A stretch of 64,000 bases of DNA. Origin: Gammaproteobacteria bacterium. Lineage in GTDB: Bacteria; Pseudomonadota; Gammaproteobacteria; CAJXQU01. The stretch lies in contig CBDEGZ010000003.1 of NCBI GenBank assembly GCA_965238175.1, positions 256,001 to 320,000 on the forward strand, given 5' to 3'. Positions 1,959-54,019 of the stretch are shown piece after piece (within the stretch, counting starts at the first letter, position 1; every line of letters starts with the position of its first letter). The translations under genes and the position numbers were made by a program. The notes beneath the pieces were generated by a model. The model had not been told where the DNA came from, did no database searches, and saw only the letters and a list, made by a program, of their open reading frames with translations.

Positions 1959-1974
1959 TACTATTCGTAGTATC

Positions 1975-2014: not shown

Positions 2015-2031
2015 AAATCCAGAGTCAAACA

Positions 2032-3246: not shown

Positions 3247-3272
3247 GATTATCTAAGGGTTGCTTTTATAAG

Positions 3273-4271: not shown

Positions 4272-4428
4272 ATTCTTGGATCTTAAATAGTTAAACTGGT
4301 TTCACGCGATTCAGTTTCAATAACAATGGATTTAAGATTATCACGACGATGGTTAAATCCAAATGCAATTATCTTTTAAGTTATGACTGCTTCAAGTTAG
4401 GTTAGCGTAGCATAAAAAATTATATGCC

Positions 4429-5571: not shown

Positions 5572-5650
5572 TGGCTACTATCTCCTGATTTTAGTATTTA
5601 TTTTAACTAACACTTTCTTAAATATCCCAAATTTACGGTGTCTTAATAAA

Positions 5651-6877: not shown

Positions 6878-6881
6878 TATT

Positions 6882-10811: not shown

Positions 10812-10817
10812 TTTACT

Positions 10818-18315: not shown

Positions 18316-18420
18316 AAATAAGATTATAGCAAGGATGTGATTTTAAAGGCTATTTTCTGGAGAGTTCCTCTATAGATTTTGTTAACATGGAGACATAAAA
18401 GCCGATCTCGCCATTACTCA

Positions 18421-21051: not shown

Positions 21052-21084
21052 TCCAAAAAAAAGCTTAAACATGGATTATAAATC

Positions 21085-28300: not shown

Positions 28301-28340
28301 GTTAAGAACATCTGCTTGAAGAAATAACGCTGCTTTAAAA

Positions 28341-29566: not shown

Positions 29567-29579
29567 TTTAAAAACAGCG

Positions 29580-37103: not shown

Positions 37104-37532
37104 TTAATATCGCTTCACGATTTCTTCTGGCTTAAAGAAGAAATTGATCTCCGCTTCGGCGGTTTCTGGTGCGTCAGATCCATGTACAGCATTGTGAGCT
37201 GCAGAACGTGCAAACTCGGCACGTATTGTTCCAGGGTCGGCTTGTTCAGGATCAGTCGCACCCATTATCTTTCGGTATCGTTTAATTGCAGACTCGCCTT
37301 CTAGTACTTGTATCATGACTGGATCAGAGATCATAAATTCGATTAAAGCATCATAAAACGACCGATCTTTATGTACCGCATAAAACTCACTTGCTTGCTC
37401 CTGGGTCAGGTGCATCATTTTCGCTGCTACTATGGTCAGCTTGTTTCTTTCAAATCGATGATAAATCTCACCAATATGTCTATCTTTTACGGCATTCGGT
37501 TTAATAATCGAAAGCGTGCGCTCAATGCTCAT
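37104..37532 (-). CDS. ndk: Nucleoside-diphosphate kinase
   Basis: [14 protein letters not shown]…PGTIR and NAVHGSD. Confidence 0.96.
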
Positions 37533-37756: not shown

Positions 37757-39901
37757 ATGTCACAAAAAAAGTTGGTGTTCCAAGTTCACTTTAATAAAAA
37801 CATCTTCAATCTTTTTCCGCTTCTAACTTTTATTTTCACGGCTTATTTATTTACCGTAACCGCTGAAGCTTCGGTAGACTCAAAACCTGCCTGGATGCTA
37901 CTAGACAACAGTAACATCATGTATAGCCCATCTTTTCTGTTATCTAACAATTTTATCAACGAGGAACAGAATGATTTAAATGGTTTTACCCTGCAACTTA
38001 GAGATATTGGTCACGAAAACGGCATCATCTTTGAAGGAGCAGAGACTACCCATGAAATAAAACTGGATTTTCCACTCCCAAGTGACACTATCATGGAAGA
38101 CGCAAATATTCGTTTAAAATATAGGGTTTCCCCCCTGCTAAATGATTTAGCAAATTTACAGCTCTCAGTTGACAATTACCCTCTTGAACAAGTTCGTTTG
38201 GGTTCTAAAGGCGTGGATCAAATATTAATTGCCGATATTCCGAAACGTTTCTTGCGTAATGGCAGTATCAGACTCACTGTGCGTGCAGCATTACCGATCA
38301 CAGAAGATCGCTGTTTGGACTCACGGGTGAACGGCAGTAATTTACATATTGATTCTGAGTCAACCTTCACCATGCACTACTCAGGAAAAATAGGCTCTCT
38401 GCGTGATGCCTGGACACTCATGCCTCACAAGGTTTTGTTATCCATTCCTGATCGTGAATTTAATACTGCTGAGTTTAATGCCGCCTGGGAGTTATTAGAC
38501 AATCTCAAACGTCAAGGTAAAGATGTTGAAGTCGTAAAATTTCCTGAAATAGGTCATATCGTGGTGGCGAAACATGCTGAACTTGAACAATTACTACAAC
38601 AAGAACTCGTTAAGCTTGAACATAAAGAAAGCAATAGTTACTTCTTAAGTGAAGAGATAAAAACCTCAAACATGGCATTAGTTAACAGTCCGGTTCGTAG
38701 CCTGATCGCGATTCTTGATCCTCAACAAACGGGTGCTTTTCAACTGATGAATAACCCCTGGCGCAAGCTGGGGGTGAACGGGCAATACAGATCGTTTTCG
38801 GTGGATTATGCGGATAACCTCAGTGGTTTAGGTAGCATCCCCGCAGTTGAAAATGCACTTAAACTGAAATTATCTGATCTAGGCGCTGATACTTCCACGC
38901 GCTATGTACGATCTAACATTAAATGGAACCTGATATTGGACCCTTTCCGTATTCCAGCAGGTACAAGACCAAACCGCCTTTTCCTAAACATCATGGCTCC
39001 ACCGCCATCAGACAAACCACCTTTTGAATTATATGTATATCTTAACGATATTATGATCCATGCAACTCGTTTAGTTGACGGTCAAAACAGACAGGAAATT
39101 TCTATTCCTCTACCCGATAATTATCAGGAACCATACAATCGTATCCAGATCCAACTTCACAATATAGATCCACAAGGGGATTGCCGAGCAGATTTAGCCG
39201 CTTTTCCGGTACAGATTCTCCCGGACAGCTCATTAATAGTTGAACGTGATCAAAGTTTACCTAAATATTTTTCTGAATTACCAGTCTATTTTGCGAATAA
39301 TTTTGATATTTATTTACCAGCAGATTATTTAGAAGCACCACACAACGCTTTACCCTACGTCTCAGCTTTAACTTCTAGATTACCGGTTCCATTCAAAACA
39401 CGTATTGCAAAGTTTTCTGAAACTGGCGAGCTTATTTCACCTGAAAGACCTTTCATTGCAATAGGCGATCTTAAACTGGACAGCCTGGAAACCCCTGTTA
39501 GATTCGATCAAGGTGAAGTACAAATAGTTGATCGAAACAAAAACCCTCTGTTCAAGGTTGAGGAGCTACCTGATGTGACTATCGCACAGCTAGTGAGTAG
39601 CAAGCAGCAAAAAGGCCTGTGGTTACGCTCAACGAATAAAGAGGGCTTTCCTGATATTCAGAAGCTATTCCTGAATCATGATGACGTTGCCTTCGCCGAT
39701 CATTCAGGTTTACTCTTTACAATGAACAGCCAACAACCAACTTTGGCGACTACTTATTATCCTGAAGCAAGAGATTGGCTTGCATTACTGGGTAAATACC
39801 GGTTTTGGTTGTTTGTTATTGGCTGGTTGGCACTAACATTAATTGTCGTCTATTTGTTTAGACGTGCAAGGCAACATAGAGATCATTCGGGCCGAAGCTA
39901 A
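37757..39901 (+). CDS. BcsB-like periplasmic co-polymerase subunit
   Basis: N-terminal signal or TM segment and two repeated beta-sandwich plus alpha/beta units (F.LP…L.YRVSP.L…C…L.IDSES; LYVYLND…C…ILPDSSL). A single C-terminal TM anchor is preceded by an amphipathic segment. Confidence 0.7.
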   Translation: MSQKKLVFQVHFNKNIFNLFPLLTFIFTAYLFTVTAEASVDSKPAWMLLDNSNIMYSPSFLLSNNFINEEQNDLNGFTLQLRDIGHENGIIFEGAETTHEIKLDFPLPSDTIMEDANIRLKYRVSPLLNDLANLQLSVDNYPLEQVRLGSKGVDQILIADIPKRFLRNGSIRLTVRAALPITEDRCLDSRVNGSNLHIDSESTFTMHYSGKIGSLRDAWTLMPHKVLLSIPDREFNTAEFNAAWELLDNLKRQGKDVEVVKFPEIGHIVVAKHAELEQLLQQELVKLEHKESNSYFLSEEIKTSNMALVNSPVRSLIAILDPQQTGAFQLMNNPWRKLGVNGQYRSFSVDYADNLSGLGSIPAVENALKLKLSDLGADTSTRYVRSNIKWNLILDPFRIPAGTRPNRLFLNIMAPPPSDKPPFELYVYLNDIMIHATRLVDGQNRQEISIPLPDNYQEPYNRIQIQLHNIDPQGDCRADLAAFPVQILPDSSLIVERDQSLPKYFSELPVYFANNFDIYLPADYLEAPHNALPYVSALTSRLPVPFKTRIAKFSETGELISPERPFIAIGDLKLDSLETPVRFDQGEVQIVDRNKNPLFKVEELPDVTIAQLVSSKQQKGLWLRSTNKEGFPDIQKLFLNHDDVAFADHSGLLFTMNSQQPTLATTYYPEARDWLALLGKYRFWLFVIGWLALTLIVVYLFRRARQHRDHSGRS

Positions 39902-41844
39902 TGGTGGAAGACACCTCTGATAGAGGCGTTGGAGCAAACGTTCCACCAGAATCGCCCGACCGCAAGTCAACAAAATTCATCCCATTAGGTGAGTTATTGC
40001 TTGAACAGGGATTGATTACGGATGAACATCTCGAAAAAGCACTGGCATTACAGCAAAGATGGGGAACCCGCTTAGGAGATATTTTGATCTCTAAAGGCTG
40101 GGTTCAACCATTTGCGTTTTATCGTGTTCTTGCTGATCAATACAGCAAACCTTTTATTAATATGATGGAAGTGCCTCCAGAAAAATCCTTATGGCGCGAA
40201 TCAGAAATTGATCAATACACCGAACACCTGGTTCTCCCTTATAGACAGGAAAAAAATAAAACCATCTTTGTCTGTGCTGATCCTTCTCCGGAAGCAATTT
40301 ATTATATGCATGAACAAACTGATGGTGCTTACGATTTTGTCATCACCTCGAAATTTGACATTATCTGGATTGTCCAACGCGAAGCTAGAGACTTTTTAGT
40401 TGATAATGCTGTTAATGATCTAGCCAATAAACAACCCGTTAACTCTGCAAAACAGGTCTTCACTACAGCACAATTAATCTGGATTTATATTGTGCTCTTG
40501 CTAATATTACTTTGCGTTACGCTCTGGCCAATCAAAGCGTTAATCACCATAAATTTATTCATATGTGTGTTCTTGTTACTCAATTTTAGTTTGCGCATTT
40601 TATTTGCCTGGGTGGGGGGGGATACACAAATCGACGTCAAAGTTACCGACGAAGAAGTACTTGCACTAACCGATCAAGATCTGCCAACTTATACCGTACT
40701 GGTTCCTATGTATAAAGAACCTGAAGTCCTGCCAATTATCACCTCCGCGATCAGAAACCTTGATTACCCACTATCTAAACTGGATATCAAATTGATCCTG
40801 GAAGATGATGATGAAGAAACAGTACAGGCTGCGAAGGAGTTAGGGCTAGAAGGCATTTTTGAAATCATTCGTGTACCTGACTCACTGCCGAAAACAAAAC
40901 CCAAAGCCTGTAATTATGCACTGAGTTTTGCCCGTGGCGAATTAGTGACTATCTATGATGCTGAAGATCGTCCAGAACCTGATCAACTCAAAAAAGCCGT
41001 GATCGCATTTCGTAAAGCACCTGATAATACCGCCGTTATTCAAGCTCGACTAAATTATTTCAATGCCAACGAAAACTGGTTAACACGGATGTTTACGTTG
41101 GAATATTCCTTGTGGTTTGATTTTTATCTGCCAGCACTCGAAGCACTAAGAATTCCTATTCCTCTTGGCGGCACTTCAAACCATTTTAAAATGCACATCC
41201 TCAAAGAGGTAGATGCCTGGGATCCCTATAACGTCACAGAAGATGCCGATCTAGGTGTGCGCTATACACAATTGAATTACCGTGTAGGCATTGTTAATTC
41301 GACTACCTATGAAGAAGCAAATAGTCATATCGGTAATTGGATACGGCAACGTTCACGTTGGATCAAAGGATATATGCAAACCTATCTGGTTCATATGCGT
41401 CATCCCATTGATCTCTATCGCTCACTCGGCGGCGGTGCCTTTTGGGGATTCCAATTTTTCATTGGCGGCGCCGTTTTAAGTGCATTGATGGCGCCGTTTT
41501 TATATTTTATGTATTTCTTCTGGCTGTACACACAAACCCATGCGTTGGATTTATTATTCCCAAGTTTTATCCTTTACATAAGCTTATTTAATTTGCTTAT
41601 TGGAAATGGCTTGCTGATTTATCTTTCAACCTTAAGTGTTTTCAAACGGCGATTCTATAGTTTGATCCCATGGGCGTTAACCATCCCCTTCTATTGGATT
41701 TTGATGTCCATTGCATCCTACCGAGCATTATGGCAATTGATCCATGATCCTTTTTATTGGGAAAAGACCGTTCACGGATTAACCTCACATAAACATGATA
41801 GCGATGTGATTCCGCCACCGATTACCAAGCCAGGCTCAACGTAA
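39901..41844 (+). CDS. Processive GT2 polysaccharide synthase with an N-terminal MshEN c-di-GMP-binding domain
   Basis: PLGELLLEQGLITDEHLEKALALQ…RLGDILISKGWV; VPMYKE, KPKACN, YDAED, VTEDADL and QRSRW; TM helices on both sides of the GT domain; YWEKT.HG. Confidence 0.88.
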   Translation: MVEDTSDRGVGANVPPESPDRKSTKFIPLGELLLEQGLITDEHLEKALALQQRWGTRLGDILISKGWVQPFAFYRVLADQYSKPFINMMEVPPEKSLWRESEIDQYTEHLVLPYRQEKNKTIFVCADPSPEAIYYMHEQTDGAYDFVITSKFDIIWIVQREARDFLVDNAVNDLANKQPVNSAKQVFTTAQLIWIYIVLLLILLCVTLWPIKALITINLFICVFLLLNFSLRILFAWVGGDTQIDVKVTDEEVLALTDQDLPTYTVLVPMYKEPEVLPIITSAIRNLDYPLSKLDIKLILEDDDEETVQAAKELGLEGIFEIIRVPDSLPKTKPKACNYALSFARGELVTIYDAEDRPEPDQLKKAVIAFRKAPDNTAVIQARLNYFNANENWLTRMFTLEYSLWFDFYLPALEALRIPIPLGGTSNHFKMHILKEVDAWDPYNVTEDADLGVRYTQLNYRVGIVNSTTYEEANSHIGNWIRQRSRWIKGYMQTYLVHMRHPIDLYRSLGGGAFWGFQFFIGGAVLSALMAPFLYFMYFFWLYTQTHALDLLFPSFILYISLFNLLIGNGLLIYLSTLSVFKRRFYSLIPWALTIPFYWILMSIASYRALWQLIHDPFYWEKTVHGLTSHKHDSDVIPPPITKPGST

Positions 41845-43352
41845 TGGCAGAAATAATTACTGAAGCCAAACCCCGGCCAACTCATAATCTTTTAGCATTG
41901 ATGCTGATCACATTGGTCTTCGCAATGTTTAGCTTCTGGTTACTTAGTAATCACTATGTCAGTGATATTGCTATGTTCCGGTGGGCAAAAGTGCTCGGTG
42001 TTATGGATGCAGAAACGATTCGGATGGAACACTTTCGTTTTATTTACCCGCATGCGCCTTTTTACATGCTGATACCTTTTACGCTGTTACCTGATGATGC
42101 ACAGGCCGCTGCACCCTATTTTATTTCAGGTCTGACCGTTGCCATATTATTGGCTTTGTGGAATCACCACCTGCGTAGAAATATTCGCCCAATTTGGCAG
42201 CGAGCACTACTTATATTATTGATCATTAGTCAACCGACTGTCCTTTGGGCAGCAACCAGCGGTGGTTATACGGCTATTAGTTTGTTGATGTTTTATCTGT
42301 TGTATCGAGCCTGTCTACGGATGATTTATCAAGAAGATGTTCGTTCGTTCATCATGCTCGGCATGATTCTCGCGTTGTACTTTTTTGCAGATCCCATTGC
42401 GCTGTTTCTATTCGTCGCGCTGGTTCCTTTCCTTTCGATTATCGCGCCACGTAAAATGTTACTTGGCTCACCGATAAGTGTATATTTGATGATAGCCATG
42501 CCGTTACTAATTGCGGTTTTATCCTGGGCTTATCTCAATTGGATCTTCGAAGGAAACGCACTCATTTTCGCACGCGAGCCTGATTCATCTTTTCTAGGCG
42601 GTTGGCAAGACACCCCAACATCAGAATGGCTAAGACTTTACGGTGGACTTTGGCTCGCACCCCTTGTCGCTGCTTTCTTACAATTGGGTCTGCTTTTCCC
42701 AGTTGTCTTTTTGCTGGTGCCCCTTACCGCACGCTTTGGTAACCATCTTAAAGCAAGCATCATTTTATTATTTCACCCAGTGATTGCTATTGCATTTGCC
42801 AGCAGCAAATACTTCTTATTTCATCCGCTGGAAATTCTGACTCTGATCAGTGCAGGTGTCATGGCCGAGCTGACAATGATCTCCTTCGCACACCGTTGGA
42901 AACTCCCAGCTTTGATCATATTACTCCTTATCGGTTCGCTCTCTGGTTGGCACCGTTTTGCACAATACACAGAACCAGAAATGCGTCACTGGTACCTGGC
43001 CTTCACCAATAGCCTTTCTGGAGAGCTATATCATGCAGATGCTGTGCTTGGTGAATGGTTGGCCAAACAAAAAGATAAAGATGTTCTGATTGACGAGAGG
43101 AGTGCATATCGTGTGATAGTTGCGAAAGGAAATGCACATCAACTCCACTTGCCGATTTCTGATCGATTTAAAATACAAACACGTTTTCAACGACCAGATA
43201 CTGATCTTATTGTTGTACCTGATCCTTCAACCAAGAAAGGTGGAAGAGACCGGATCAATCTTCTCTACCCTGAACTTTATAAAGAGGGTCTAGCAGGTTT
43301 CAAACGTGTTTATGATTATGCAGGTTGGCGGGTCTATCAAAATGAATCTTGA
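41844..43352 (+). CDS. Polytopic membrane protein, GT-C/PMT-like
   Basis: Roughly 11-13 hydrophobic segments, an SD in the first loop, YPH.P, and a soluble C-terminal domain ending GWRVY. Confidence 0.55.
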   Translation: MAEIITEAKPRPTHNLLALMLITLVFAMFSFWLLSNHYVSDIAMFRWAKVLGVMDAETIRMEHFRFIYPHAPFYMLIPFTLLPDDAQAAAPYFISGLTVAILLALWNHHLRRNIRPIWQRALLILLIISQPTVLWAATSGGYTAISLLMFYLLYRACLRMIYQEDVRSFIMLGMILALYFFADPIALFLFVALVPFLSIIAPRKMLLGSPISVYLMIAMPLLIAVLSWAYLNWIFEGNALIFAREPDSSFLGGWQDTPTSEWLRLYGGLWLAPLVAAFLQLGLLFPVVFLLVPLTARFGNHLKASIILLFHPVIAIAFASSKYFLFHPLEILTLISAGVMAELTMISFAHRWKLPALIILLLIGSLSGWHRFAQYTEPEMRHWYLAFTNSLSGELYHADAVLGEWLAKQKDKDVLIDERSAYRVIVAKGNAHQLHLPISDRFKIQTRFQRPDTDLIVVPDPSTKKGGRDRINLLYPELYKEGLAGFKRVYDYAGWRVYQNES

Positions 43353-44385
43353 TACGCTCACCGATCGCCGGTCATTATTTTTGATTCTCGCAATTAGCAG
43401 CATGTCTGCTTGTGATTACCCAACGAAACCCGATCTGGTTGGTTTTAATTTTTTACAGGACAGGCATACTGCAATGAATTCAACTGGTGCATGCTTATCA
43501 ATGCAACACTTGCGTCTAACAGGTGCAAACTCCGTCGTTCTTGTACCTTTTTTAAAACAAGATACACCTCAATCTATTGTTGTTGACAAAAGTGATGCCG
43601 TCACAGACGAACAACTGATTGCTGCATTAGAACTGGCAAAAAAACACCATTTACATCGCGTGCTTAAACCACAAATTTTGATTGAAAATTCCTGGGCTGG
43701 TGCCATTACACAACAAAATTCTGAACAAGAAACCAATTGGTTTAATAACTACACTCAGCAACTTCTTTATTATGCACAGCTTGCTGCAACCCATCAGGTC
43801 GATGCCTTTGTGATTGGTACAGAATTAAAAAAAATACAAGCTAGCAAACATTGGCCTGACGTGATCAAAAAAATACGATCCGTTTATTCTGGAAAACTAA
43901 CTTATGCAGCAGGAGAAGTTGCAGGCATTGAAACGTTTCCTTATTGGGATCTACTCGACACCGTTGGCGTGACCTTGTATCCCGACATGACACAAGAAAA
44001 AATCACCGATACATTAACAGAACAATTAGAAAAACTGGCAAATGATTTTCAACAACCGGTCTGGATTCTCGAAATCGGTATACCCTCAGCAAAAGGTTGG
44101 GAATCACGACCATGGGATTGGCGTTCGATAGAAACATCATCGCCGTCGGCAGATCCAGATGCTCAGGCAAATTTGATCCGTCGCTGGTTAACCTCGTTGG
44201 AAAAAACTCAATCGTCAAATATCGAAGGGATCTGGATCTGGCAGTGGAACAGTTCTCCACAAGCGGGTGGCCGTAATGACACCAGCTACACCGTACAAAA
44301 TAAATTGGCTCAAGCCGTTGTTCATCAACACTGGCGATCTCCGCTTAGTCTATTTATGAGGAAAATCAGCGAATGTACAAGTTAA
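43342..44385 (+). CDS. GH113-like TIM-barrel glycoside hydrolase, lipoprotein
   Basis: Lipobox-like MSAC, LKPQI…WAG, WF.NY, IGTEL (acid/base), GKLTYAA and ILEIG (nucleophile). Likely ATG at 43342. Confidence 0.8.
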   Translation: MNLDTLTDRRSLFLILAISSMSACDYPTKPDLVGFNFLQDRHTAMNSTGACLSMQHLRLTGANSVVLVPFLKQDTPQSIVVDKSDAVTDEQLIAALELAKKHHLHRVLKPQILIENSWAGAITQQNSEQETNWFNNYTQQLLYYAQLAATHQVDAFVIGTELKKIQASKHWPDVIKKIRSVYSGKLTYAAGEVAGIETFPYWDLLDTVGVTLYPDMTQEKITDTLTEQLEKLANDFQQPVWILEIGIPSAKGWESRPWDWRSIETSSPSADPDAQANLIRRWLTSLEKTQSSNIEGIWIWQWNSSPQAGGRNDTSYTVQNKLAQAVVHQHWRSPLSLFMRKISECTS

Positions 44386-45200
44386 TATTTTCTCTTTTAT
44401 TACTCCCGATTTTAATCCTTCCGCGAAGCAGTTTTGCGGTCAGCCCCTGGATGTTATCTGAAGGTGAGCTCTATTACTCAGGTGGTCTTAGTTATTCGAC
44501 CAGTGACAAAAGTTGGGATCGTAGCAGTAAACTTAGAGACTCCAGTTGCCATTCACAAACTTTCCGATCAAATCATCAGCTGGAATATGGTTACAGCTAC
44601 TACCACACCCTAATTGCGAATTTGGAATTAATCGATAAACATTGTGGCGATGAAGACTACACAGGCCTGGGTGACTTACGTCTTGGCATCCGTGGACGAT
44701 TAAATGTATTTGAAAATGGTAAAACCTGGGAAGTAACTTTGATCGTTCCAACCGGCTACTCACGCAGCAACCGCACTCGACCTGGCAATGGAGAATTCGG
44801 TATTGAAGGTGGGTTAGCGTATCTTTCTCGTGGTGAAGAAAGAGACTTCGCACAGCAGTGGGACTTTCTAACCGGTGCATCCGTACGTTTATGGGCGAAC
44901 GGTCCGGCAGATCAGTTTTTAACCTACGCAACAGTCCGCCGACATATTGGAAAATCTGGTCGTTTGAGCGTGGGACTCAGTGCAGATATTTCTTTTCAAA
45001 ATGAAGGCAACACCAGAAATAACTTTGCCGATGGAACACAACTTTCCGATTACGATAGAGTAACTGCAAGAATAAGCTGGGCAAATCGACTCAACGAAGA
45101 CTGGCGGTATAAAATCGGTGCTTCCCATGTAGCCTGGGGACGAAATGCAGGACACAGTATGAAAATCGGCATCACATTCAGTCGACACTGGGGGTCATAA
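44373..45200 (+). CDS. Putative outer-membrane beta-barrel (export pore candidate)
   Basis: Signal peptide (SFA), alternating amphipathic strands (LEYG, GLGDLRLGIR) and a terminal strand IGITFSRHW. Confidence 0.65.
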   Translation: MYKLIFSLLLLPILILPRSSFAVSPWMLSEGELYYSGGLSYSTSDKSWDRSSKLRDSSCHSQTFRSNHQLEYGYSYYHTLIANLELIDKHCGDEDYTGLGDLRLGIRGRLNVFENGKTWEVTLIVPTGYSRSNRTRPGNGEFGIEGGLAYLSRGEERDFAQQWDFLTGASVRLWANGPADQFLTYATVRRHIGKSGRLSVGLSADISFQNEGNTRNNFADGTQLSDYDRVTARISWANRLNEDWRYKIGASHVAWGRNAGHSMKIGITFSRHWGS

Positions 45201-45218
45201 ACCATTGGGGTTATAAAA

Positions 45219-46997
45219 ATGAGCAGCTATTTAACTAAAAAAAATAACTCAACAATCATACGATCAATTTTAAAATTTTTATGTGCATTTCTTTCTGTCT
45301 ACGCCATTCACACATCTGCAGCAATACAAAACGAGATCCATGCACTGCACCTGACAATGGATGAATTGGATGCCGAAGTTATTTTCCGTAAAGAATATAA
45401 TGACAAATCATCATTCCCAGTCACGGTCATTGATACAGGTGATCAAAAATTAACGGGTCGCGTTAAAGTCTCTGGCAGTTTCTCCAGGCGCTTCAATAAA
45501 AAAAATCTGATCATAAAACTTGATAACGACCAACTATGGAATGGTCAAAAAAAGATTTCCTTAGATGGCATGGCAACTGATGGCTCCATGTTACGCGAAT
45601 GGCTGGCCTGGCAATTAATTGAAGATCTTGGTATGTCGGGGCCCAGAGTAGAATACATCCGTGTGTACATAAATAAAAAGTACCACGGGCTTTTTCTTCA
45701 AACAGAATGGATAGACACCAAATTATTTGATCGTTTTGGTCTTGGTAAAACAGGCCAATTTTTTCATCCTGTCGATTCAAAATTTTGTGGTGATTTTCGT
45801 TATTACGAAGATAAAAAAATTGAGTCTTGCTGGTTCAAACTCTCACCGCGAGATGATGACTTTACGCCTTTGATCGATGCCTACGCACAGATCAAAAAAA
45901 TATCAATAGAAAATTTTGATCAATACATTGCAAACAATTTCGATGAAGAATCAGTAATCAACTGGCTAGCACTTAATATCCTGACCAGCAATGGTGACAC
46001 TTACAACAAAAATTATTTTCTCTATCAACCAGAAGCGACAAAGAAATGGGTCGTCATTCCCTGGGATTATGATCTAACCTTTGGTCGAAATTGGGATCCT
46101 TTCCTTGAATTTCCAAAAAGTATTTTGAATGATAATTTTCAATATTATTATCCACCACAACTCGGCGCCGAAAATCCGTTAAAAGAAAAGGTCATGCGCA
46201 ATCCAGCATTGAATAAAAAAGTGATCGCTAAATTATTACACTTGCTCGGAATTGAAAAACAAGGAACAGACAATAACTTCGGCTGGTTTAATCCTGATCA
46301 ATTAAAGACAAGAATTGATCAAGCCGCCGTAAAACTCGAACCGCATCATGAAGGCGATCCTTTTTTAAAAGAGCAAGCTATCGACTACAAGAAAGAAATT
46401 CAAACTCTCTGGCATTATGCACAACGCCGTTATGCTTATTTAAAAGAAACATTGACCGGCGAATACCAATGGGATGCTGAAAAAGCAATGTGGAATTACG
46501 ATGAAGAACCGGCTCCTAGAAACCCTTTCCCAAGTTCCTTACGTGTTCGTCAAACGATTTTAGAAAATGGGGAATATACATTAATTACCGCACCGGCCTA
46601 TGGTTATGCCCTAAGTGGTATACGTTTAAAAGATAACCTCGGCCCCGCAGAATTCAGTGCCGAGTCAGAAATGGATCAACTTCCATTACTACTTCCGACC
46701 AGCTATCAACCTGAATCTTGTATTCAACGAAATTGGTACCTGTCTTTACTTTCGCCCTACCATGACAGAATCATGGATCTACAACTTGAATACTTGCAAG
46801 AAAACTCGCAAAGAAATGAAATCGGAAAAAATGTTAATGAAGCAGATCTAAAACTGTGGGCACTCAACGGACGCGAATGGAGACAACTCGATGCTCAAAT
46901 TAATACACTTTCAAATGTATTTACGCTTGAAAACTTCACCATGCAGTCAGGCACGGTTTTAAGATTTGCAGCTTGCTCAGTTGAGCAGAATAATTAG
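45219..46997 (+). CDS. Exported CotH-family atypical kinase
   Basis: Signal-like N-terminus; VKVSGSFSR…KKNLIIKL, LREWLA, YINKKYHGLF…E, NGDTYNKNYFLY and IPWDYDLTFG. Confidence 0.85.
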   Translation: MSSYLTKKNNSTIIRSILKFLCAFLSVYAIHTSAAIQNEIHALHLTMDELDAEVIFRKEYNDKSSFPVTVIDTGDQKLTGRVKVSGSFSRRFNKKNLIIKLDNDQLWNGQKKISLDGMATDGSMLREWLAWQLIEDLGMSGPRVEYIRVYINKKYHGLFLQTEWIDTKLFDRFGLGKTGQFFHPVDSKFCGDFRYYEDKKIESCWFKLSPRDDDFTPLIDAYAQIKKISIENFDQYIANNFDEESVINWLALNILTSNGDTYNKNYFLYQPEATKKWVVIPWDYDLTFGRNWDPFLEFPKSILNDNFQYYYPPQLGAENPLKEKVMRNPALNKKVIAKLLHLLGIEKQGTDNNFGWFNPDQLKTRIDQAAVKLEPHHEGDPFLKEQAIDYKKEIQTLWHYAQRRYAYLKETLTGEYQWDAEKAMWNYDEEPAPRNPFPSSLRVRQTILENGEYTLITAPAYGYALSGIRLKDNLGPAEFSAESEMDQLPLLLPTSYQPESCIQRNWYLSLLSPYHDRIMDLQLEYLQENSQRNEIGKNVNEADLKLWALNGREWRQLDAQINTLSNVFTLENFTMQSGTVLRFAACSVEQNN

Positions 46998-47028
46998 AAA
47001 TAAAGTTTTATTTGAGAGTGTTTTTATA

Positions 47029-48254
47029 TGTAGAAATTCAGATTTGATCTGACAGTTACCCAATTATCAGTAACCGACTGTCAGGTTAAGTTTAATTCAC
47101 AAACTTTTCCTTCCAGATAGCTTGTCCGTCGATGAGTGTTTCCATCGGCGTCCTCCCGCAGCACATTTTGCCTTGGTGAGTTCGTTGAGTATTGTATTTG
47201 AGCAACCATTCGTCAAGGTCGAGTTGCAGTTCATCAATCGATTGGTAAATTTTCTTACGCAAAGCGACTTGATAAAACTCATTGAGGATCGTCTTATGGA
47301 ATCGCTCACAAATACCATTCGTCTGAGGTGATTTGACCTTGGTTTTGGTGTGTTCGATATTGTTCAACGCCATATAAAGCTGATAATCATGCTGGTCAGC
47401 TCGCCCACAATACTCCGTCCCTCTATCTGTCAAAATGCGCAACATAGGCAAACGTTGTTCTTCGTAGAATGGGAGGACGCGGTCATTGAGCATGTCAGCT
47501 GCCGTAATCGGTGTTTTAGTCGGGTACAGTTTCGCGTGAGCGACCTTGCTGTAAGTATCAACAAACGTTTGTTGATAAACCCGACCAATGCCTTTGAAAG
47601 TACCGACATAGTAAGTATCTTGCGAGCCAAGATAACCAGGGTGTGCCGTCTCTATCTCGCCACAAGCCTCATCGTCGTCTTTCTTGCGTTCCATCGCCGC
47701 GACTTGAGACTCAGTGAGGATCAAGCCTTCACCAGCTACCTTATCAGACAATGCCTTCAGGCGATCTTTAAAGCAAGCAAGACCATGACGAAGCCAGATA
47801 CAACGAACGCCACTGGGTGAGACAAATGTTCCCCGTTTGCGCAGCTCGTTACTGGTGCGCGTTTGACCATGTGCGGGCTCTTCCAGTGCATACTCGAGCA
47901 CAACGGTTTCAATAGCCGGGTCGATTCTGTTTTTAAGATTTGGGGTACGCCGATTACGATCAAACAAGGCTTCTACACCGCCTTCATCAGCCGCTTCTTT
48001 GTAGCGATAAAATGTATCTCTGGACAAACCCATCATCTTGCAGGCTTTTGAGACATTGCCGAGTTCTTCAGCGAGATTGAGTAGACCAACTTTATGTTTT
48101 ATAACTTTGTCATTAGTATGAATCATGAGAGTTACCTCTTTGTGTTTTGATGTTTACGTTGCAGTTACATCAAAGCGGGTAACTCTCACTAAATCAAGCG
48201 TCGCTACGCTCCGCTTGATTTAGTGATGTGTCAGATTGGGTCTAAACTTCTACA
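47029..48254 (-). mobile_element. IS481-family insertion sequence, copy 3 (1226 bp, no target duplication)
   Basis: Same termini as copies 1 and 2. The flanks TTTTATA (47022-28) and ATTAACC (48255-61) do not match. Confidence 0.95.
47092..48126 (-). CDS. IS481-family DDE transposase
   Basis: Protein identical to copy 2. Confidence 0.95.
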   Translation of the reverse strand: MIHTNDKVIKHKVGLLNLAEELGNVSKACKMMGLSRDTFYRYKEAADEGGVEALFDRNRRTPNLKNRIDPAIETVVLEYALEEPAHGQTRTSNELRKRGTFVSPSGVRCIWLRHGLACFKDRLKALSDKVAGEGLILTESQVAAMERKKDDDEACGEIETAHPGYLGSQDTYYVGTFKGIGRVYQQTFVDTYSKVAHAKLYPTKTPITAADMLNDRVLPFYEEQRLPMLRILTDRGTEYCGRADQHDYQLYMALNNIEHTKTKVKSPQTNGICERFHKTILNEFYQVALRKKIYQSIDELQLDLDEWLLKYNTQRTHQGKMCCGRTPMETLIDGQAIWKEKFVN

Positions 48255-48282
48255 ATTAACCTGACTACTTCGGGAATAACAA

Positions 48283-50409
48283 CTAGGTTTCAAAAACTAG
48301 TTCGTTCTGTTCTTGGTTATTATTGATCAGTAATTCTTCAAATTGTTTTGCAGGAACAGGTGGACTTAGATAAAACCCCTGATACTCATCACAACCATTC
48401 GTTCTTAGGAAGTTGAGATGATCGCTTGTTTCGACACCTTCTGCTACGACATTAAGCTGCAGACTCTTCGCTACGGTAATAATGAGCTTTGCTAATTCGC
48501 CGTTTTTTCCATTTGCATCAATATCTTTTATAAATGCGCGATCAATTTTTAAGGTCGTTAGAGGTAGTTGATTGAGGTAACTTAATGAAGAAAATCCAGT
48601 TCCAAAATCGTCCATTGAAATACTAATCCCCATATTCTTGATGGTTTCGAGTAAATGGATCGAAGTATCAATATTATTCATGGTACAGCTTTCAGTGATT
48701 TCAAGGTCAACATGCTTGGAATCTATACCTGAACCTTCCAATGCGCTACAGACTTCATCAATAAAAATTTGGTGGTTAAATTGTTTGACTGAAACGTTGA
48801 CACTTATCTTAAGGTTATCATAACCTTTCATGTGCCATTGCATTGTTTGTTTACAAGCTTCTTCTAAAACCCATCTACCAATTGGGATAATCAAACCTGT
48901 TTTCTCAGCAATTGGGATGAATTCAAATGGTGGGACCAGTCCTCTTTCGGGGTGGTTCCAGCGAATTAAAGCCTCCATCCCTTTAATTATTCCAGTCTCG
49001 ACACAAACTTTTGGTTGGTAGTAGATCTCCAGTTCATTATTCCCAAGTGCTCCACGTAAGTCCTTTTCCAGTACAAGGGATTGAAGGGCTTCAGATTTCA
49101 TTTCTTCATTGTAAAAACAGAACTGATTTCCACCGGTTTCTTTAGCGCGATTCATTGCTAGATCGGCTTGCTTGATCAGATCTTCTTTCTCATTTTCATC
49201 CTCTGAAGACATAGATGAAATCGCAATACCAATGCTCCCTGTACTGATCAATTCATGGTCATTGACAATATGCGGATTTGATAAAATTTCCAGTAATTCT
49301 TGAGCAATTCCAATCACATCATCTTTTGAAGTTACTCCTTCAAGAATAAGAGAAAATTCATCACCACCTAATCTAGCTAGAGTATTGGCTTTCTGCGTTA
49401 CATTTCTCAAACTTTCAGTAACTGATTGGAGAAACTTATCTCCAACTTCGAGCCCTAAAGAATCATTAATATTCTTAAAACGATCGAGGTTTACTACCAA
49501 AACAGCAATTTCTTCTTGTGTGTGTCCCGGGATTGCTAGTGCATGTGCTAAACGATCTTTGAACAATGTTCGGTTTGGTAGATTAGTCAGGTTGTCATAA
49601 TAAGCCTGATGATGGATCTTTTCTTGAGCTATATGTTGTTCAGTGATGTCTTGTACTACACCAAGCATGTGAGATACTTTTCCCTCAGCATTAATGATCA
49701 ACTCGGCATGTTGATGAACAACCTGGAGTTTTTTGTCAGGATGATCTATCCGATGTTCTACATCGAATGGAATATTATGTTTTAGTGAGAAAAGTACGGC
49801 CTGTTTAACTTTCTCGCAATCATCTGGGTGCACCATTTCTAAGAATGCGGCACTGTTATTCTCAAATTTATATGAGTCTACACCAACGAGTTCGTAGACT
49901 TCTTCTGACCAATATTGATAATCTTTCTCTACATCCCAATCCCAGTAACCAATCCTCGCCATTCTATGAGCTTGACTTTGGCGTAGTTGATTTTTATATA
50001 ATTCCAGACTTGTGTTGAAAGTTTTTAGTCCATTACGAACCCTTTGTTTGAAGATCGGTAAATTAATGGGCTTAACAATAAAATCAGTTGCACCACTATC
50101 GAACGCTTTTTCTACAGATTCTGTATCTTCTAATCCTGTCAGCATCAAAATAGGGATCTTAAACTTATGTTCTTGCTCACGAATAGCAATAGAAGCTTGA
50201 TAGCCATCCATTACAGGCATTATTACGTCCATGACGATCATATTAGGAGAATATTCGGCAACAGAAGTCACGGCTTTCTGTCCATTTTCAGCGGTGATTA
50301 CATCATAACCTTCACTCTGCAGTGCTTTCTTGGTGTATAGACGACCGATAAGCTCATCATCTACAACAAGGATAAGCGGTGTTTTCCTTTCATGAGAATC
50401 TTTAATCAA
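48283..50409 (-). CDS. REC-PAS-GGDEF-EAL c-di-GMP turnover protein
   Basis: VVDDE/MDVIMP/KP, a PAS region (GYWDWD…HPDD), RLGGDEF, EALIRW, LEITE, DDFGTG and AEGVE. Confidence 0.93.
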   Translation of the reverse strand: MIKDSHERKTPLILVVDDELIGRLYTKKALQSEGYDVITAENGQKAVTSVAEYSPNMIVMDVIMPVMDGYQASIAIREQEHKFKIPILMLTGLEDTESVEKAFDSGATDFIVKPINLPIFKQRVRNGLKTFNTSLELYKNQLRQSQAHRMARIGYWDWDVEKDYQYWSEEVYELVGVDSYKFENNSAAFLEMVHPDDCEKVKQAVLFSLKHNIPFDVEHRIDHPDKKLQVVHQHAELIINAEGKVSHMLGVVQDITEQHIAQEKIHHQAYYDNLTNLPNRTLFKDRLAHALAIPGHTQEEIAVLVVNLDRFKNINDSLGLEVGDKFLQSVTESLRNVTQKANTLARLGGDEFSLILEGVTSKDDVIGIAQELLEILSNPHIVNDHELISTGSIGIAISSMSSEDENEKEDLIKQADLAMNRAKETGGNQFCFYNEEMKSEALQSLVLEKDLRGALGNNELEIYYQPKVCVETGIIKGMEALIRWNHPERGLVPPFEFIPIAEKTGLIIPIGRWVLEEACKQTMQWHMKGYDNLKISVNVSVKQFNHQIFIDEVCSALEGSGIDSKHVDLEITESCTMNNIDTSIHLLETIKNMGISISMDDFGTGFSSLSYLNQLPLTTLKIDRAFIKDIDANGKNGELAKLIITVAKSLQLNVVAEGVETSDHLNFLRTNGCDEYQGFYLSPPVPAKQFEELLINNNQEQNELVFET

Positions 50410-50411
50410 GT

Positions 50412-53400: not shown

Positions 53401-53921
53401 ATGATCGCCGAGAGTGCTGTGTCAAGTGAAGAACCTTCCATTAAAAGGCGAATTTCTACAGGGATCATAATCAGTATGACAAAAGAAGAAACAACAACCC
53501 GATGGTGTGATAAGGCGATTGTTGCAAAGAGTGAGATACTTGAAATCATCAGCACCATAAAGATCTGATATTCCGTATTACTGGCAGAAAAAATATTCCA
53601 GAACAAAAGACTCCATCCAACAGCAGTGGCAGATGATCCGATCATAAATCGGTACAAATACAATTTTGGGTTGAGAGTGTCAGGGTTTGAGTTCGAATAA
53701 TGTATTACATCCAATGCACGAAAGAATATGATTATTGCAATGGGAATGAGCCAGAGTGATTCAGTACGATCACCGCCGATTTCACGAGTGTTGGTAAAAT
53801 AAATAATGATGCCAATAATGAAATAGTTCACGAATGAATAGGGGACGCCACTGTAAAGCGATTTAACTTGTTCCTTGAGCAGTAAATTTTTGGATTTATC
53901 AGTAGTCATAATTTTCCGCAT
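50412..53921 (-). CDS. Hybrid sensor histidine kinase (TM-PAS-GAF-HisKA-HATPase-REC-REC-Hpt)
   Basis: Several N-terminal TM helices, PAS (W.GEI.N.AKDG..YW), GAF, FLANMSHEIRTPM, two REC domains and Hpt HALKGSS. The start is uncertain (53930/53921/53909). Confidence 0.92.
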   Translation of the reverse strand: MRKIMTTDKSKNLLLKEQVKSLYSGVPYSFVNYFIIGIIIYFTNTREIGGDRTESLWLIPIAIIIFFRALDVIHYSNSNPDTLNPKLYLYRFMIGSSATAVGWSLLFWNIFSASNTEYQIFMVLMISSISLFATIALSHHRVVVSSFVILIMIPVEIRLLMEGSSLDTALSAIMLFSFLFQFNGAMRINKNYLANLHLKFENDQKENELANQQYALDQHAIISKANVCGEITHVNDRFIELSKYSKDELLGQDHRIINSNKHLPSFFKDMWQTIASGQVWHGEIRNKAKDGSYYWVDSTIVPFLDKEGKPYQYISMRTDITTSKDQDLQNTKDKNDALLRAQVAQILQGQESLEERVANALKTISKLEDAQSQNNASVFLLADNKSELQLFVAHCADDNALVWKEKTVDVYEELYGSVAISGKLLISDYCTSKTDHDNTLDQLTPHGHYIVPLWNSGKILGILFIYTDPYPSSDQSRLDTLNFIGDLLGVAIANEKINTELKQARKNAEDMAQAKSDFLANMSHEIRTPMNGVLGMLDLLNNMDLDQQSASYIETAHGSASMLLNVINDILDISKIESGKLHIEKVNFDLRKAVEDTAELLYKLACQKNLELAVYIPPETITILQGDVLRLQQILNNLISNAIKFTYEGEVSIHISTVKESAEECRLRFEVIDSGIGIAEEKQVSLFQAFTQADTSTSREFGGTGLGLTISKNLIEMMGGEIGLISTAGKGSTFWFELPFNILPRESHFEIDMDTLRFLTIDDNQTNCLILKEYVENWGAKNITETNPEIGIQRLKEAADQNRPFDILLLDMQMPKTTGLKVAAEIRNHSALANLKIILLSSMSLERVNNEENLLDMMLNKPIRQSMLYDTIVTVLNKQTSSWKKVKAPSDDTQKLTGHILLVDDNPVNQHVGREMLSKLGLSFEVASNGQEALDLQRVGNFDLILMDCQMPVIDGFEATKMIRKHEAEFTLDPITIVALTANAMESDREKCLDAGMDDYLAKPYSLKSLSEMLFRCLTTLKVNNFNKNFVVQDQNLSQESISNEIKAKGHKPAADIIDKHKFQETMETMGDSMNLIIDAFVNSGKKNITEMERHLEAANFEGVKSATHALKGSSGALGIQQLFELCKDTEEKCCMAKTENIHTQVEEISILFEKSQAAIQTLMMELVT

Positions 53922-54019
53922 ATTTTTCAAATTTTCAAAATAAACAAGGAGTTAGGTAAGGAAAATGCGAAAGCAAGATTTGAACCAAATTTGTGTCTTT
54001 GAATTGATATAATCGTCTT

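Follow-up and report, generated by a model that had tools for sequence, protein, structure and literature searches.

What does a run of six genes make that joins a cellulose-type synthase and its partner to a mannanase-like hydrolase, a small barrel and a CotH kinase, and has this combination been seen before? These genes occupy positions 37757–46997 of the window, the 64-kb stretch of gammaproteobacterial DNA analysed here, and a preliminary description had proposed that they form a new exopolysaccharide system gated by c-di-GMP. The six ORFs (37757–39901, 39901–41844, 41844–43352, 43306 from GTG or 43342 from ATG to 44385, 44373–45200 and 45219–46997) are intact and all lie on the plus strand, and every junction given in that description was found again: TAATG at 39899–39903 and at 41842–41846, an ATG at 43342 that overlaps the stop of the gene upstream (43350–43352), an ATG at 44373 that overlaps the stop of the GH113 gene (44383–44385), and 18 nt (45201–45218) between the barrel and CotH genes. 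Its placement between ndk (37104–37532, minus strand) and an insertion sequence, here an IS481-family transposase gene (47092–48126, minus strand), also held, and the GC content of the operon equals that of its flanks. Pfam and NCBIfam profiles, PDB matches and AlphaFold models searched with Foldseek agreed with all six earlier domain calls and with an architecture of the synthase-dependent type, in which MshEN takes the place of PilZ, GH113 that of GH8 and a small barrel that of TPR-BcsC, with a GT-C-like protein and a CotH kinase added. Together the six genes form a genuine machinery for secreting a sugar polymer, one that, judging from its motifs, c-di-GMP probably switches on.

Taking the genes in order, the first (37757..39901, plus strand) encodes an Sfz1-like periplasmic subunit of the BcsB family (714 aa; Pfam BcsB, E 5.5e-17), with an N-terminal signal or anchor and a C-terminal TM helix with a basic tail as read from the sequence. 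It scores 21–25 bits against the NCBIfam BcsB equivalogs, whose cut-offs are 750–972, phmmer found it no match in the PDB, and 68 of 71 informative loci encode a homologue 5' of the GT2 gene. The Sfz2/XagB-like synthase that follows (39901..41844, plus strand; 647 aa; Pfam MshEN, Glyco_trans_2_3 and Glyco_tranf_2_3; NF053729) has an N-terminal MshEN domain and a GT2 catalytic domain, separated by two TM helices, with more TM helices C-terminal to the GT2 domain. GT2 family profiles match it at E 2e-19, residues 213–554 match BcsA (4hg6, 1.6e-8) in the PDB, and D353/E355/D356, T446-E447-D448 and Q483-R-S-R-W487 are invariant in 78/78 homologues. At the other end, residues 24–130 match the MshEN domains of PilF/MshE in the PDB (8e-28 to 5e-8), and the profile for the MshE-related c-di-GMP motif, NF053729, is matched at E 4e-19 (68 bits, cut-off 38). 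The tandem motif itself (residues 28–80, nt 39982–40140, spacing 24+5+24) agrees with the relaxed pattern of Wang 2016; its first half opens with Pro28 and not with Arg, at a position that holds R in 35, P in 17 and W in 15 of the 78 homologues. That Arg contacts a guanine (Wang 2016), and the substitution, as a sequence feature, would count against c-di-GMP gating through MshEN.

The third gene (41844..43352, plus strand) encodes an Sfz3/XagC-like integral membrane protein (502 aa) whose C-terminal domain is soluble. It matches nothing in Pfam or NCBIfam, and 66 of 72 informative loci have its gene after that of the GT2. Its AlphaFold model (pLDDT 90.9, pTM 0.89) has a predicted GT-C fold, the best Foldseek matches in the PDB all being GT-C proteins, namely DPY19 (E 4e-5), ArnT (5f15, TMq 0.53), AftA, ALG12 and PglB, with Atlas neighbours in PMT_2/ArnT clusters. 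Docking prediction with the synthase gave a score of 0.77, compared with 0.00 for the best of three controls, with runs agreeing in at least 94% of contacts and a partner pLDDT of at least 83; 58 of 80 solved complexes reach the mark applied, as against 2 of 110 mismatched pairs, counts that hold only roughly here because our own alignments were used. The protein is thus predicted to dock onto the TM region of the synthase. Conservation of the acidic residue usual in the first loop of GT-C enzymes is incomplete: E62 is present in 20 of 21 sequences of the six-gene type, and most other sequences have the residue at position 62 or 63. This patchiness would weigh against a transferase role, and the cluster encodes neither a polyprenyl-phosphate sugar synthase nor a flippase, which a GT-C transferase would need. 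No fused GT2/GT-C protein appeared among the longer proteins searched, which is weak evidence, nor among the best 150 of 1088 family representatives, which measure 157–611 aa.

The hydrolase, Sfz4/XagD-like and of family GH113 (43342..44385, plus strand; Pfam GH113, E 2e-43), has a frame open from GTG 43306, and a start at ATG 43342 yields a lipoprotein-like signal ending in ...SAC. It matches the endo-beta-1,4-mannanases 4cd6 and 3civ at E 1e-20, and its two catalytic Glu are invariant in 35/35 homologues. The gene that follows (44373..45200, plus strand) encodes an Sfz5-like outer-membrane beta-barrel of 275 aa with a signal peptide and about 12 strands, for which there is no Pfam match; its model (pLDDT 83, pTM 0.80) retrieved the COG4313 channel 4rl8 (E 3e-11, TMq 0.72) and FapF (5o65–5o68), and its Atlas neighbours include Phenol_MetA_deg clusters (48% of the members of one). 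By this model Sfz5 is a COG4313/FapF-like barrel. Known polysaccharide exporters are wider than a 12-strand barrel, and this narrowness counts against a role in polymer export. Last comes an Sfz6-like CotH-family kinase of 592 aa (45219..46997, plus strand; Pfam CotH, E 2e-53; B. cereus CotH 5jd9 in the PDB, E 1e-20), in which D260, N265 and D283 are invariant in 31/31 homologues and the C-terminal ~180 aa match no assigned domain. An N-terminal Sec-type signal or anchor, read off the sequence, places its kinase domain outside the cytoplasm. Directly 3' of the CotH gene, 24 of 28 informative loci carry a gene resembling TLC-type ATP/ADP transporters (PF03219, 31–36 bits, cut-off 21); none was found anywhere in the 64-kb window, and this lack counts against ATP supply to a periplasmic kinase.

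Comparison with related loci revealed the complete set of six, co-oriented and in the same order, in 31 of 57 informative loci, defined as those with at least 2.2 kb upstream and at least 5.5 kb downstream of the GT2 gene, so the arrangement is more than chance. The remaining 26 are of a three- or four-gene type lacking the barrel, CotH and TLC genes. On a midpoint-rooted FastTree tree of the GT2 proteins, barrel and CotH genes are restricted to one clade (35 of 67 informative loci have the barrel gene, all within it), and those members of the clade without them sit on short contigs that end too early, two of which (L022 and L035) still have the barrel gene. The six genes proved collinear with sfz1–sfz6 ("stalk formation in Zetaproteobacteria"; Koeksoy 2021, PMC8250860) of Mariprofundus ferrooxydans PV-1, with identities of 33/60/41/37/31/38% for genes 1–6. 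The PV-1 ORFs measure 804/684/501/343/315/1592 aa; sfz2–sfz6 fall within the ranges of Koeksoy Table 2, and the maximal 804-aa ORF of sfz1 equals the top of its range, its preferred start giving 735 aa. The sfz cluster is identical with the "xag-like" cassette (CDS9–12) of Kato 2015, itself related to Xanthomonas xagABCD (PMC4643136). The idea of an unknown gene set therefore fell, whereas the claim that the system is uncharacterised stood, as our literature search found no biochemical characterisation of an sfz/xag-like product. The family is already described and serves as a genomic marker. By sequence, the operon is a member of the described sfz/xag-like family of iron oxidisers and Xanthomonas. 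To that family we add a predicted GT-C fold and docking for Sfz3, left without function in published annotation, the barrel type of Sfz5, the invariant catalytic residues, the TLC-like neighbour, and a spread beyond iron oxidisers, since record titles place complete six-gene loci also in Gammaproteobacteria, Piscirickettsiaceae, Ectothiorhodospiraceae, Thiohalomonadaceae, Desulfobulbaceae, Desulfurivibrionaceae and Azoarcus.

Set beside sfz1–sfz6, Ferriphaselus sfb1-4 and CDS9–12, the operon has the same six families in the order and strand of sfz1–sfz6, but its host is a gammaproteobacterium and not a known iron oxidiser, its CotH protein lacks the SH3-bearing N-terminal extension of Sfz6 (1415–2270 aa), and it has no counterpart of the ATP/ADP-antiporter-like gene that neighbours the cluster in Zetaproteobacteria (PMC8250860). 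In the annotation of that paper, the Sfz2 N-terminus is an EpsE-like T2SS domain and Sfz4 a GH10 enzyme, here MshEN and GH113, while Sfz3 and Sfz5, here modelled as a GT-C fold and a barrel, carry no assignment. Kato 2015 likened three proteins of the cassette, the GT2, the membrane protein after it and the hydrolase, to XagB, XagC and XagD, and found no xagA homologue in the iron oxidisers (PMC4643136); the published accounts of xag that we found do not describe barrel, CotH or TLC genes. The likeness to xag is taken from published description, with no Xanthomonas locus among the 80 loci compared. In Xanthomonas, xag expression is described as rising with c-di-GMP. The Bcs system (BcsA-BcsB-BcsZ-BcsC) shares a BcsA-like GT2 with TED and QxxRW, a C-terminally anchored BcsB-family partner, a periplasmic hydrolase and an outer-membrane barrel; it differs in having a C-terminal PilZ domain, GH8 and TPR plus BcsC barrel, and the window adds the GT-C-fold and CotH proteins. 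A c-di-GMP-activated GT2 with an MshEN domain is described in E. coli NfrB-NfrA-YbcH (PMC8669469, PMC8669472). Residues 23–128 of the window synthase align to positions 478–582 of the NfrB model, but NfrB carries MshEN at its C-terminus and the window protein at its N-terminus, the score is 31 bits against a cut-off of 1170, and a Pfam scan of the window found no NfrA- or YbcH-like genes. The Pel loci of Gram-positive bacteria have an unrelated synthase family (PelF is a GT4 enzyme) and hosts without periplasm or barrel. They resemble our locus in that a synthase-dependent polysaccharide operon has next to it a gene for a secreted CotH-domain protein (PMC7112168). Their accessory genes are cotH, a poly-phosphate polymerase and DUF4956, and the phosphate-related companions are a polyphosphate polymerase and an MgtC/ACT protein in place of a TLC-like carrier (PMC7112168, PMC12345266).

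We consider it roughly 70% probable that the operon is an intact sfz/xag-like exopolysaccharide system that works as follows. Binding of c-di-GMP to the N-terminal MshEN domain, as its motif suggests, would free the activity of the GT2 synthase. A REC-PAS-GGDEF-EAL protein (48283-50409, minus strand) and a hybrid histidine kinase (50412-53930, minus strand), both recognised by Pfam and NCBIfam, possibly provide local c-di-GMP control; tblastn against the close relatives L001 and L050 found no homologue of them beside the cluster, so this adjacency is not conserved. With D, DxD, TED and QxxRW, as in processive synthases of the BcsA type, the synthase would use a nucleotide sugar to build a beta-linked chain and pass this through the inner membrane, with the BcsB-like protein, held by its C-terminal helix, as its likely periplasmic partner. 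The GT-C-fold protein, in predicted contact with the C-terminal TM helices of the synthase, may decorate the chain as it emerges, with a lipid-linked sugar as donor, or be a structural subunit. In the periplasm the GH113 lipoprotein would trim or clear the polymer, and because every solved relative found is a beta-1,4-mannanase, the backbone is most likely beta-mannan-like and the product, on these sequence grounds, most likely a decorated beta-mannan-type polymer. The 12-strand barrel may then carry the chain over the outer membrane, and the exported CotH kinase may phosphorylate the polymer or a machinery protein, perhaps with ATP provided, in most relatives, by the TLC-type transporter-like gene absent here. 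Accounts of Xanthomonas xag describe an uncharacterised polysaccharide required for biofilm, which beta-1,4-mannanase disperses (PMC3528676), and in Streptococcus intermedius loss of a secreted CotH-domain gene beside the pel operon is described as reducing Pel and aggregation (PMC12345266).

A divergent cellulose synthase, that is, a Bcs variant making beta-1,4-glucan, is unlikely. BcsA is the sole solved sequence relative of the GT2 domain, the partner has a BcsB domain and the GH113 clan has mixed specificities, but the match to the CelA model TIGR03030 is weak (43.6 bits, cut-off 699), the BcsB equivalog scores fall similarly short, the Pfam scan found no PilZ, GH8 or TPR-BcsC, and all seven solved relatives of the hydrolase at E 1e-16 or better are beta-1,4-mannanases; the dispersal of xag-dependent biofilm by mannanase points the same way (PMC3528676). 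Less likely again is a glycan bound to the envelope, be it a periplasmic glucan-like polymer, a glycolipid or the result of GT-C-mediated transfer to a protein or lipid. The acceptors of GT-C enzymes (ArnT, PglB, PMT, DPY19, Aft) are typically lipids, proteins or the cell wall, homologues of the GT2 go by "beta-monoglucosyldiacylglycerol synthase" in some sources, and the barrel would be a tight fit for a polymer. Against this, QxxRW, TED and the BcsA-like TM arrangement suggest a processive, translocating synthase, the operon keeps a dedicated outer-membrane barrel and a hydrolase, and biofilm matrix functions are described as lost in xag mutants.

That the cluster makes Fe(III)-encrusted twisted stalks in a stalk-forming iron oxidiser seems very improbable, even though the family was defined as one that stalk-forming Zeta- and Betaproteobacteria have and their stalk-less relatives lack, and now serves as a marker for stalks (PMC8250860, PMC10734462, PMC12607638), for the host is a gammaproteobacterium whose Der protein shares no more than 62% identity with any match named below class level, the 64-kb window holds no iron-oxidation gene, the CotH protein is short and complete six-gene loci occur in the many other lineages named above. 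Least probable of all is a decaying remnant disabled by an insertion and the loss of a seventh, TLC-like gene. An IS481-family element (47019..48259, minus strand; NF033577 transpos_IS481, E 4e-83), one of three copies in the window at 99.6–99.7% identity, does begin 22 bp past the operon's last stop codon, at the usual site of the TLC-like gene. All six frames are nevertheless intact and full length, the checked catalytic residues are all conserved and the GC content does not depart from the flanks; moreover, the TLC-like gene is missing too from the two closest relatives, L001 and L050, neither of which has an IS at that site, so the six-gene form is a stable variant.

Six plus-strand open reading frames made up the operon, as the preliminary description had claimed: a BcsB-like protein (gene 1, 37757-39901, 714 aa), a synthase with MshEN and GT2 domains (gene 2, 39901-41844, 647 aa), a predicted GT-C-fold protein (gene 3, 41844-43352, 502 aa), a GH113 hydrolase (gene 4, from 43306 or 43342 to 44385, with two start options), a putative barrel (gene 5, 44373-45200, 275 aa) and a CotH protein (gene 6, 45219-46997, 592 aa). 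The junctions agreed exactly with that account, with TAATG at 39899-39903 and 41842-41846, the ATG at 43342 over the stop at 43350-43352, the ATG at 44373 over the stop at 44383-44385, and an 18-nt gap ahead of the CotH gene, and so did the flanks, with ndk on the left and an IS on the right; ndk is accompanied by rlmN, both on the minus strand, and the IS carries an IS481-family transposase. GC content was the same in the operon (0.39-0.45) as in its flanks. Rfam gave zero families at gathering score across the whole window, hence no c-di-GMP riboswitch, the promoter scan was no better than shuffles (21 found versus 22.1 expected), and the terminator scan fell below shuffle expectation (5 found versus 8.3 expected).

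The same description had proposed a candidate new system, a claim not supported here, as the cluster is already published as sfz1-sfz6, or the 'xag-like' cassette. In the accessible text of Koeksoy et al. 2021 (PMC8250860), stalk-forming Zetaproteobacteria carry a six-gene cluster that encodes, in order, a BcsB-like protein, a T2SS-E-N-terminal-like domain with GT2, an unknown protein (~1.5 kb, ~500 aa), a hydrolase (~1 kb, ~340 aa), a second unknown protein (~0.95 kb, ~310 aa) and a large SH3 and CotH protein (Sfz6, 1415-2270 aa, with the SH3 domain N-terminal), and there the authors treat sfz as equivalent to the 'xag-like' cassette that Kato et al. described in 2015 (PMC4643136), related to Xanthomonas xagBCD. 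By tblastn, all six window proteins matched the locus of Mariprofundus ferrooxydans PV-1 (L026) with order and strand kept, at identities of 33, 60, 41, 37, 31 and 38% for genes 1 to 6, and the ORFs of that locus (804, 684, 501, 343, 315 and 1592 aa) fit the size ranges of Koeksoy Table 2. Judged by the PV-1 locus sequence together with published gene order and sizes, the window operon is a member of the sfz/xag-like family, and since this gene set had been published before as a candidate cluster, the operon adds a member to a known family. A literature search, mostly outside subscription journals, found no paper characterising the sfz product or proteins, and papers up to 2025 still term the genes putative in the portions available (PMC10734462, PMC12607638). 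Relative to the available portion of the published sfz account, the additions here are predicted folds for Sfz3 and Sfz5, the GH113 and MshEN assignments, the pairing of CotH with a TLC-like gene, and complete clusters on records of other lineages.

Comparison with these systems also revealed differences. The sfz hosts are stalk-forming Fe(II) oxidisers, whereas the nearest named relatives of the window host are sulfur-oxidiser-type Gammaproteobacteria; Sfz6 spans 1415-2270 aa with an SH3 domain, whereas the window CotH protein has 592 aa and no SH3 match; and the published annotation of GH10 and 'EpsE-like' is replaced here by GH113 and MshEN. The likeness to Xanthomonas xag comes through the Kato 2015 description. 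Unlike the Bcs system, with its C-terminal PilZ domain, GH8 BcsZ and TPR-plus-barrel BcsC, the window operon has no protein with a PilZ, GH8 or TPR match at E <= 0.01, and its proteins score far under the CelA and BcsB equivalog cut-offs.

Scanning genome contigs with the GT2 alignment gave 80 related loci, and 31 of the 57 with enough flanking DNA held all six genes collinear, an outcome that favours the co-occurrence that the preliminary description had proposed checking. Among informative loci, the BcsB-like gene was present in 68 of 71, the GT-C-fold gene in 66 of 72, GH113 in 53 of 68 (34 on the same strand), the barrel in 35 of 67 and CotH in 32 of 60. The remaining 26 loci carried the first three genes, some weakly or not detectably, often with GH113 on the opposite strand, and the barrel and CotH genes occurred in none of the 26; by record title these were mostly Alphaproteobacteria (Niveispirillum, Novosphingobium, Aurantimonas and others), together with the Burkholderiales titles Paraburkholderia, Burkholderia and Trinickia. 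On a midpoint-rooted FastTree phylogeny of GT2 (77 loci plus the window, with three loci under 80% GT2 coverage left out), the two architectures formed two clades, and loci of the six-gene clade without a barrel or CotH gene lay on short contigs ending before those genes. Given these counts, the conserved core consists of the BcsB-like, MshEN-GT2 and GT-C-fold genes; GH113 is usually nearby, and barrel plus CotH form a clade-specific module. The family is widespread, with at least 8000 proteins scored in the GT2 search and 1088 representatives of the GT-C-fold partner at 50% clustering.

Within the tree, the window clustered with two gammaproteobacterial MAG loci, L001 (GT2 identity 91%) and L050 (78%), which share its ndk/rlmN flank, and its Der protein was 94% identical to that of L001's MAG and at most 62% identical to matches named below class. 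Complete clusters were found on records titled Gammaproteobacteria, Piscirickettsiaceae, Ectothiorhodospiraceae, Desulfobulbaceae and Azoarcus, the labels being MAG record titles and possibly wrong. In the field, sfz serves as an indicator that iron-oxide stalks are formed (PMC10734462, PMC12607638); because complete clusters occur on records of lineages not known as iron oxidisers, caution is warranted in reading sfz alone as a stalk signature. Two contigs of 4359 bp each (L010 and L021), titled Zetaproteobacteria and Lentisphaeria, were close on the GT2 tree, and L022, titled Pseudomonadales, fell among Mariprofundus-type loci; all three look like shared or mis-binned MAG contigs, and MAG taxon labels therefore need care.

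Gene 1 carries a Pfam BcsB domain (E 5.5e-17), a predicted N-terminal signal or anchor, and a predicted C-terminal TM helix leading into a basic tail; it scored far under the NCBIfam BcsB equivalog cut-offs, and a sequence search of the PDB gave zero relatives. Gene 2 matched NF053729, the MshE-related c-di-GMP motif model (68 bits versus a cut-off of 38), and several GT2 families, with residues 24-130 aligning to the solved MshEN domains of PilF and MshE (5htl) and residues 213-554 to BcsA 4hg6. A tandem MshEN motif (residues 28-51 and 57-80, spacer 52-56) satisfies the relaxed pattern given in the available text of Wang 2016 (PMC5013675), the strict form of which has Arg at the first position and fails in gene 2 at P28 alone. 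At position 28, 78 homologues held Arg in 35 cases, Pro in 17 and Trp in 15. Motif and alignments indicate that the regulatory domain is of the MshEN c-di-GMP receptor type. The remainder of the protein has the features of a BcsA-type processive GT2 (D, DxD, TED and Q(Q/R)xRW, plus flanking TM helices assigned from sequence), and D353-A-E-D356, T446-E-D448 and Q483-R-S-R-W487 were unchanged in 78 of 78 homologues.

Gene 3 gave zero Pfam or NCBIfam matches, so no Pfam GT-C family. Its structural model (pLDDT 90.9) returned nine Foldseek matches at E <= 0.001, all nine of them GT-C enzymes (TMq up to 0.54), with DPY19, ArnT, AftA, ALG12 and PglB among the structural matches, and its protein Atlas neighbours were PMT_2/ArnT clusters. 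The model predicts a GT-C membrane fold with a periplasmic C-terminal domain. GT-C glycosyltransferases have a conserved catalytic acidic residue in the first extracytoplasmic loop and use polyprenyl-phosphate sugar donors. Here, 20 of the 21 six-gene-type sequences have the first-loop acidic residue E62, and most of the nine other sequences have an acidic residue at 62 or 63.

When the gene 3 protein was modelled with the synthase membrane region (residues 180-647), it reached a docking score of 0.77 in three of three runs, the best of three controls scoring 0.00; 58 of 80 solved complexes passed the docking mark, as did 2 of 110 mismatched pairs, counts that hold roughly here as our own alignments were used. 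The runs shared at least 94% of contacts with a partner pLDDT of at least 83, and in the predicted interface residues 236-242 and 555-593 of the synthase meet gene 3 residues 163-170 and 204-231, along with first-loop residues 58-61, which adjoin the conserved E62. The model supports, as a prediction, binding of gene 3 to the synthase membrane part. We know of no solved complex of a GT2 synthase with a GT-C protein. A fusion of the two would independently support the predicted contact, but zero fused synthase/GT-C proteins were found among longer proteins (weak evidence), and the best 150 of the 1088 GT-C-fold family representatives spanned 157-611 aa with no fused form. Two long ORFs considered as fusions, in L011 (1037 aa) and L039 (742 aa), were rejected as open alternate frames over the upstream gene.

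For gene 4, the GH113 assignment (PF22612, E 2e-43, 149 bits versus a cut-off of 27) was accompanied by alignment to solved beta-1,4-mannanases (AaManA 4cd6/3civ, E 1e-20) with both Glu positions kept, and these two catalytic clan GH-A positions, one the acid/base and the other the nucleophile, were unchanged in 35 of 35 homologues. The ATG at 43342 gives the protein a lipoprotein-like signal. Gene 5 had zero Pfam matches at E <= 0.01, PF13557 included. Its model (pLDDT 83) is a barrel with some 12 strands, the nearest structure being the COG4313 channel 4rl8 (E 3e-11, TMq 0.72, 15% identity), FapF also matched, and its Atlas neighbours include a cluster with PF13557 in 48% of members; on this modelling gene 5 is predicted to be an outer-membrane barrel. 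Gene 6 is a CotH protein (PF08757, E 2e-53, 182 bits versus a cut-off of 23.8; B. cereus CotH 5jd9, E 1e-20) with no other Pfam match besides a sub-threshold HipA_C. D260, N265 and D283 were unchanged in 31 of 31 homologues; we take the Asp residues to be catalytic and metal-binding sites of CotH kinases, their functional roles reportedly having been addressed by Nguyen in 2016. A predicted N-terminal signal or anchor puts the kinase domain outside the cytoplasm.

Clustering the ORFs on either side of 35 six-gene-type loci revealed a membrane protein of ~420-500 aa encoded directly 3' of the CotH gene, with a match to the TLC ATP/ADP-transporter family (31-36 bits versus a cut-off of 21 in the four examples scanned). 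This TLC-like gene lay at most ~270 bp from the CotH end, or overlapped it, in 24 of the 28 loci that extend 1.4 kb or more downstream, directly following CotH at 13959-15323 in L002, 20323-21612 in the PV-1 locus, 17245-18570 in L017 and 17029-18393 in L077, and all 27 loci with a TLC match fell in the six-gene clade. The available portion of PMC8250860 names an 'ATP-ADP antiporter' among conserved Zetaproteobacteria neighbours and draws no link to CotH there. After CotH the gene was missing in the window, L001, L050, L015 and L069, the genomes of the last two also holding a second, TLC-bearing cluster (L025 and L024, respectively). Mariprofundus micogutta ET2 (L024 and L069) and MAG OFTM123 (L025 and L015) each have two paralogous six-gene clusters, one with a long CotH (~1600 aa) and the TLC-like gene, the other with a short CotH (~680 aa) and no TLC-like gene. 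The window itself holds three IS481-family copies (10812-12043, 28331-29571 and 47019-48259; transposase of 344 aa on the minus strand), the last beginning 22 bp past the operon, and their 99.6-99.7% identity suggests recent transposition in this genome. As L001 and L050 are without the TLC gene and have no IS at that place, loss of the TLC gene probably predates the insertion.

Our best reading is that the operon encodes a c-di-GMP-gated, synthase-dependent polysaccharide system, in which MshEN would bind c-di-GMP and gate a BcsA-like synthase partnered by the BcsB-like protein, the GT-C-fold protein would ride on the synthase, GH113 would trim the polymer, the barrel would export it, and CotH would work outside the cytoplasm. 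A mannan-like backbone is suggested because the solved GH113 relatives are all mannanases, because xag-dependent Xanthomonas biofilm is dispersed by beta-1,4-mannanase (PMC3528676, in excerpt), and because sfz in Zetaproteobacteria has a gene for phosphomannose isomerase close by, according to the accessible text of PMC8250860. Analogy lends some support to an exported CotH role in polysaccharide systems: CotH genes adjoin Gram-positive pel operons (PMC7112168), and S. intermedius made less Pel and aggregated less once a gene encoding a secreted CotH-domain protein was deleted (PMC12345266, in excerpt). Counted against this reading are P28 in place of the first motif Arg, the finding of zero genes for lipid-linked sugar donor synthesis within the cluster, tblastn's return of no TLC-like gene in the window, which leaves CotH no ATP source there, and the lack of conservation of the neighbouring GGDEF-EAL and hybrid kinase genes.

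A further proposal, which we regard as unlikely, is that the barrel, CotH and TLC genes work together as a module for phosphorylation in the periplasm, an ATP-fed kinase acting on chain or machinery. The TLC-type carrier would export ATP across the inner membrane to the Sec-exported CotH kinase, which would phosphorylate either the nascent mannan-like chain leaving the synthase/GT-C supercomplex or the export machinery. If true, bacteria would here have a glycan kinase that acts outside the cytoplasm and has its own ATP supply, the product would be an anionic polymer well suited to bind Fe(III) and other metals, and the window lineage would be a natural variant with its ATP carrier lost or relocated. 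The polysaccharide system of our best reading is directly testable, offering a predicted GT-C-fold partner and barrel, a putative MshEN domain, and an exported kinase usually paired with a nucleotide-transporter-like gene.

Other genes were observed near these clusters. Just past the IS, the window encodes a REC-PAS-GGDEF-EAL protein and a hybrid histidine kinase bearing PAS, GAF and Hpt domains (48283-53930, minus strand); as conserved c-di-GMP control these were rejected, being absent by the L001 and L050 clusters, and unrelated loci do carry GGDEF-EAL or hybrid kinase genes nearby. An alkaline-phosphatase-superfamily gene (Phosphodiest, Sulfatase) separates GH113 from the barrel gene in three MAG loci of Gammaproteobacteria (L003, 14383-15354; L013, 14344-15258; L016, 14423-15370, opposite strand). 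Five Zetaproteobacteria loci have a CHASE2-Ser/Thr protein kinase and a PP2C phosphatase upstream of the cluster (3661-6902 in L024, with matching genes in L025, L028, L030 and L043). Elsewhere in the window, positions 204-7613 are the tail of a second polysaccharide locus, probably of Wzx/Wzy type, encoding a Wzc-like tyrosine kinase (GNVR and AAA_31), a GT4 glycosyltransferase, a polysaccharide deacetylase and an ATP-grasp protein, and positions 16296-17732 and 18379-24474 encode a eukaryote-type Ser/Thr protein kinase (478 aa) plus an AddAB-like pair consisting of a PD-(D/E)XK nuclease (890 aa) and a UvrD-type helicase-nuclease (1129 aa).
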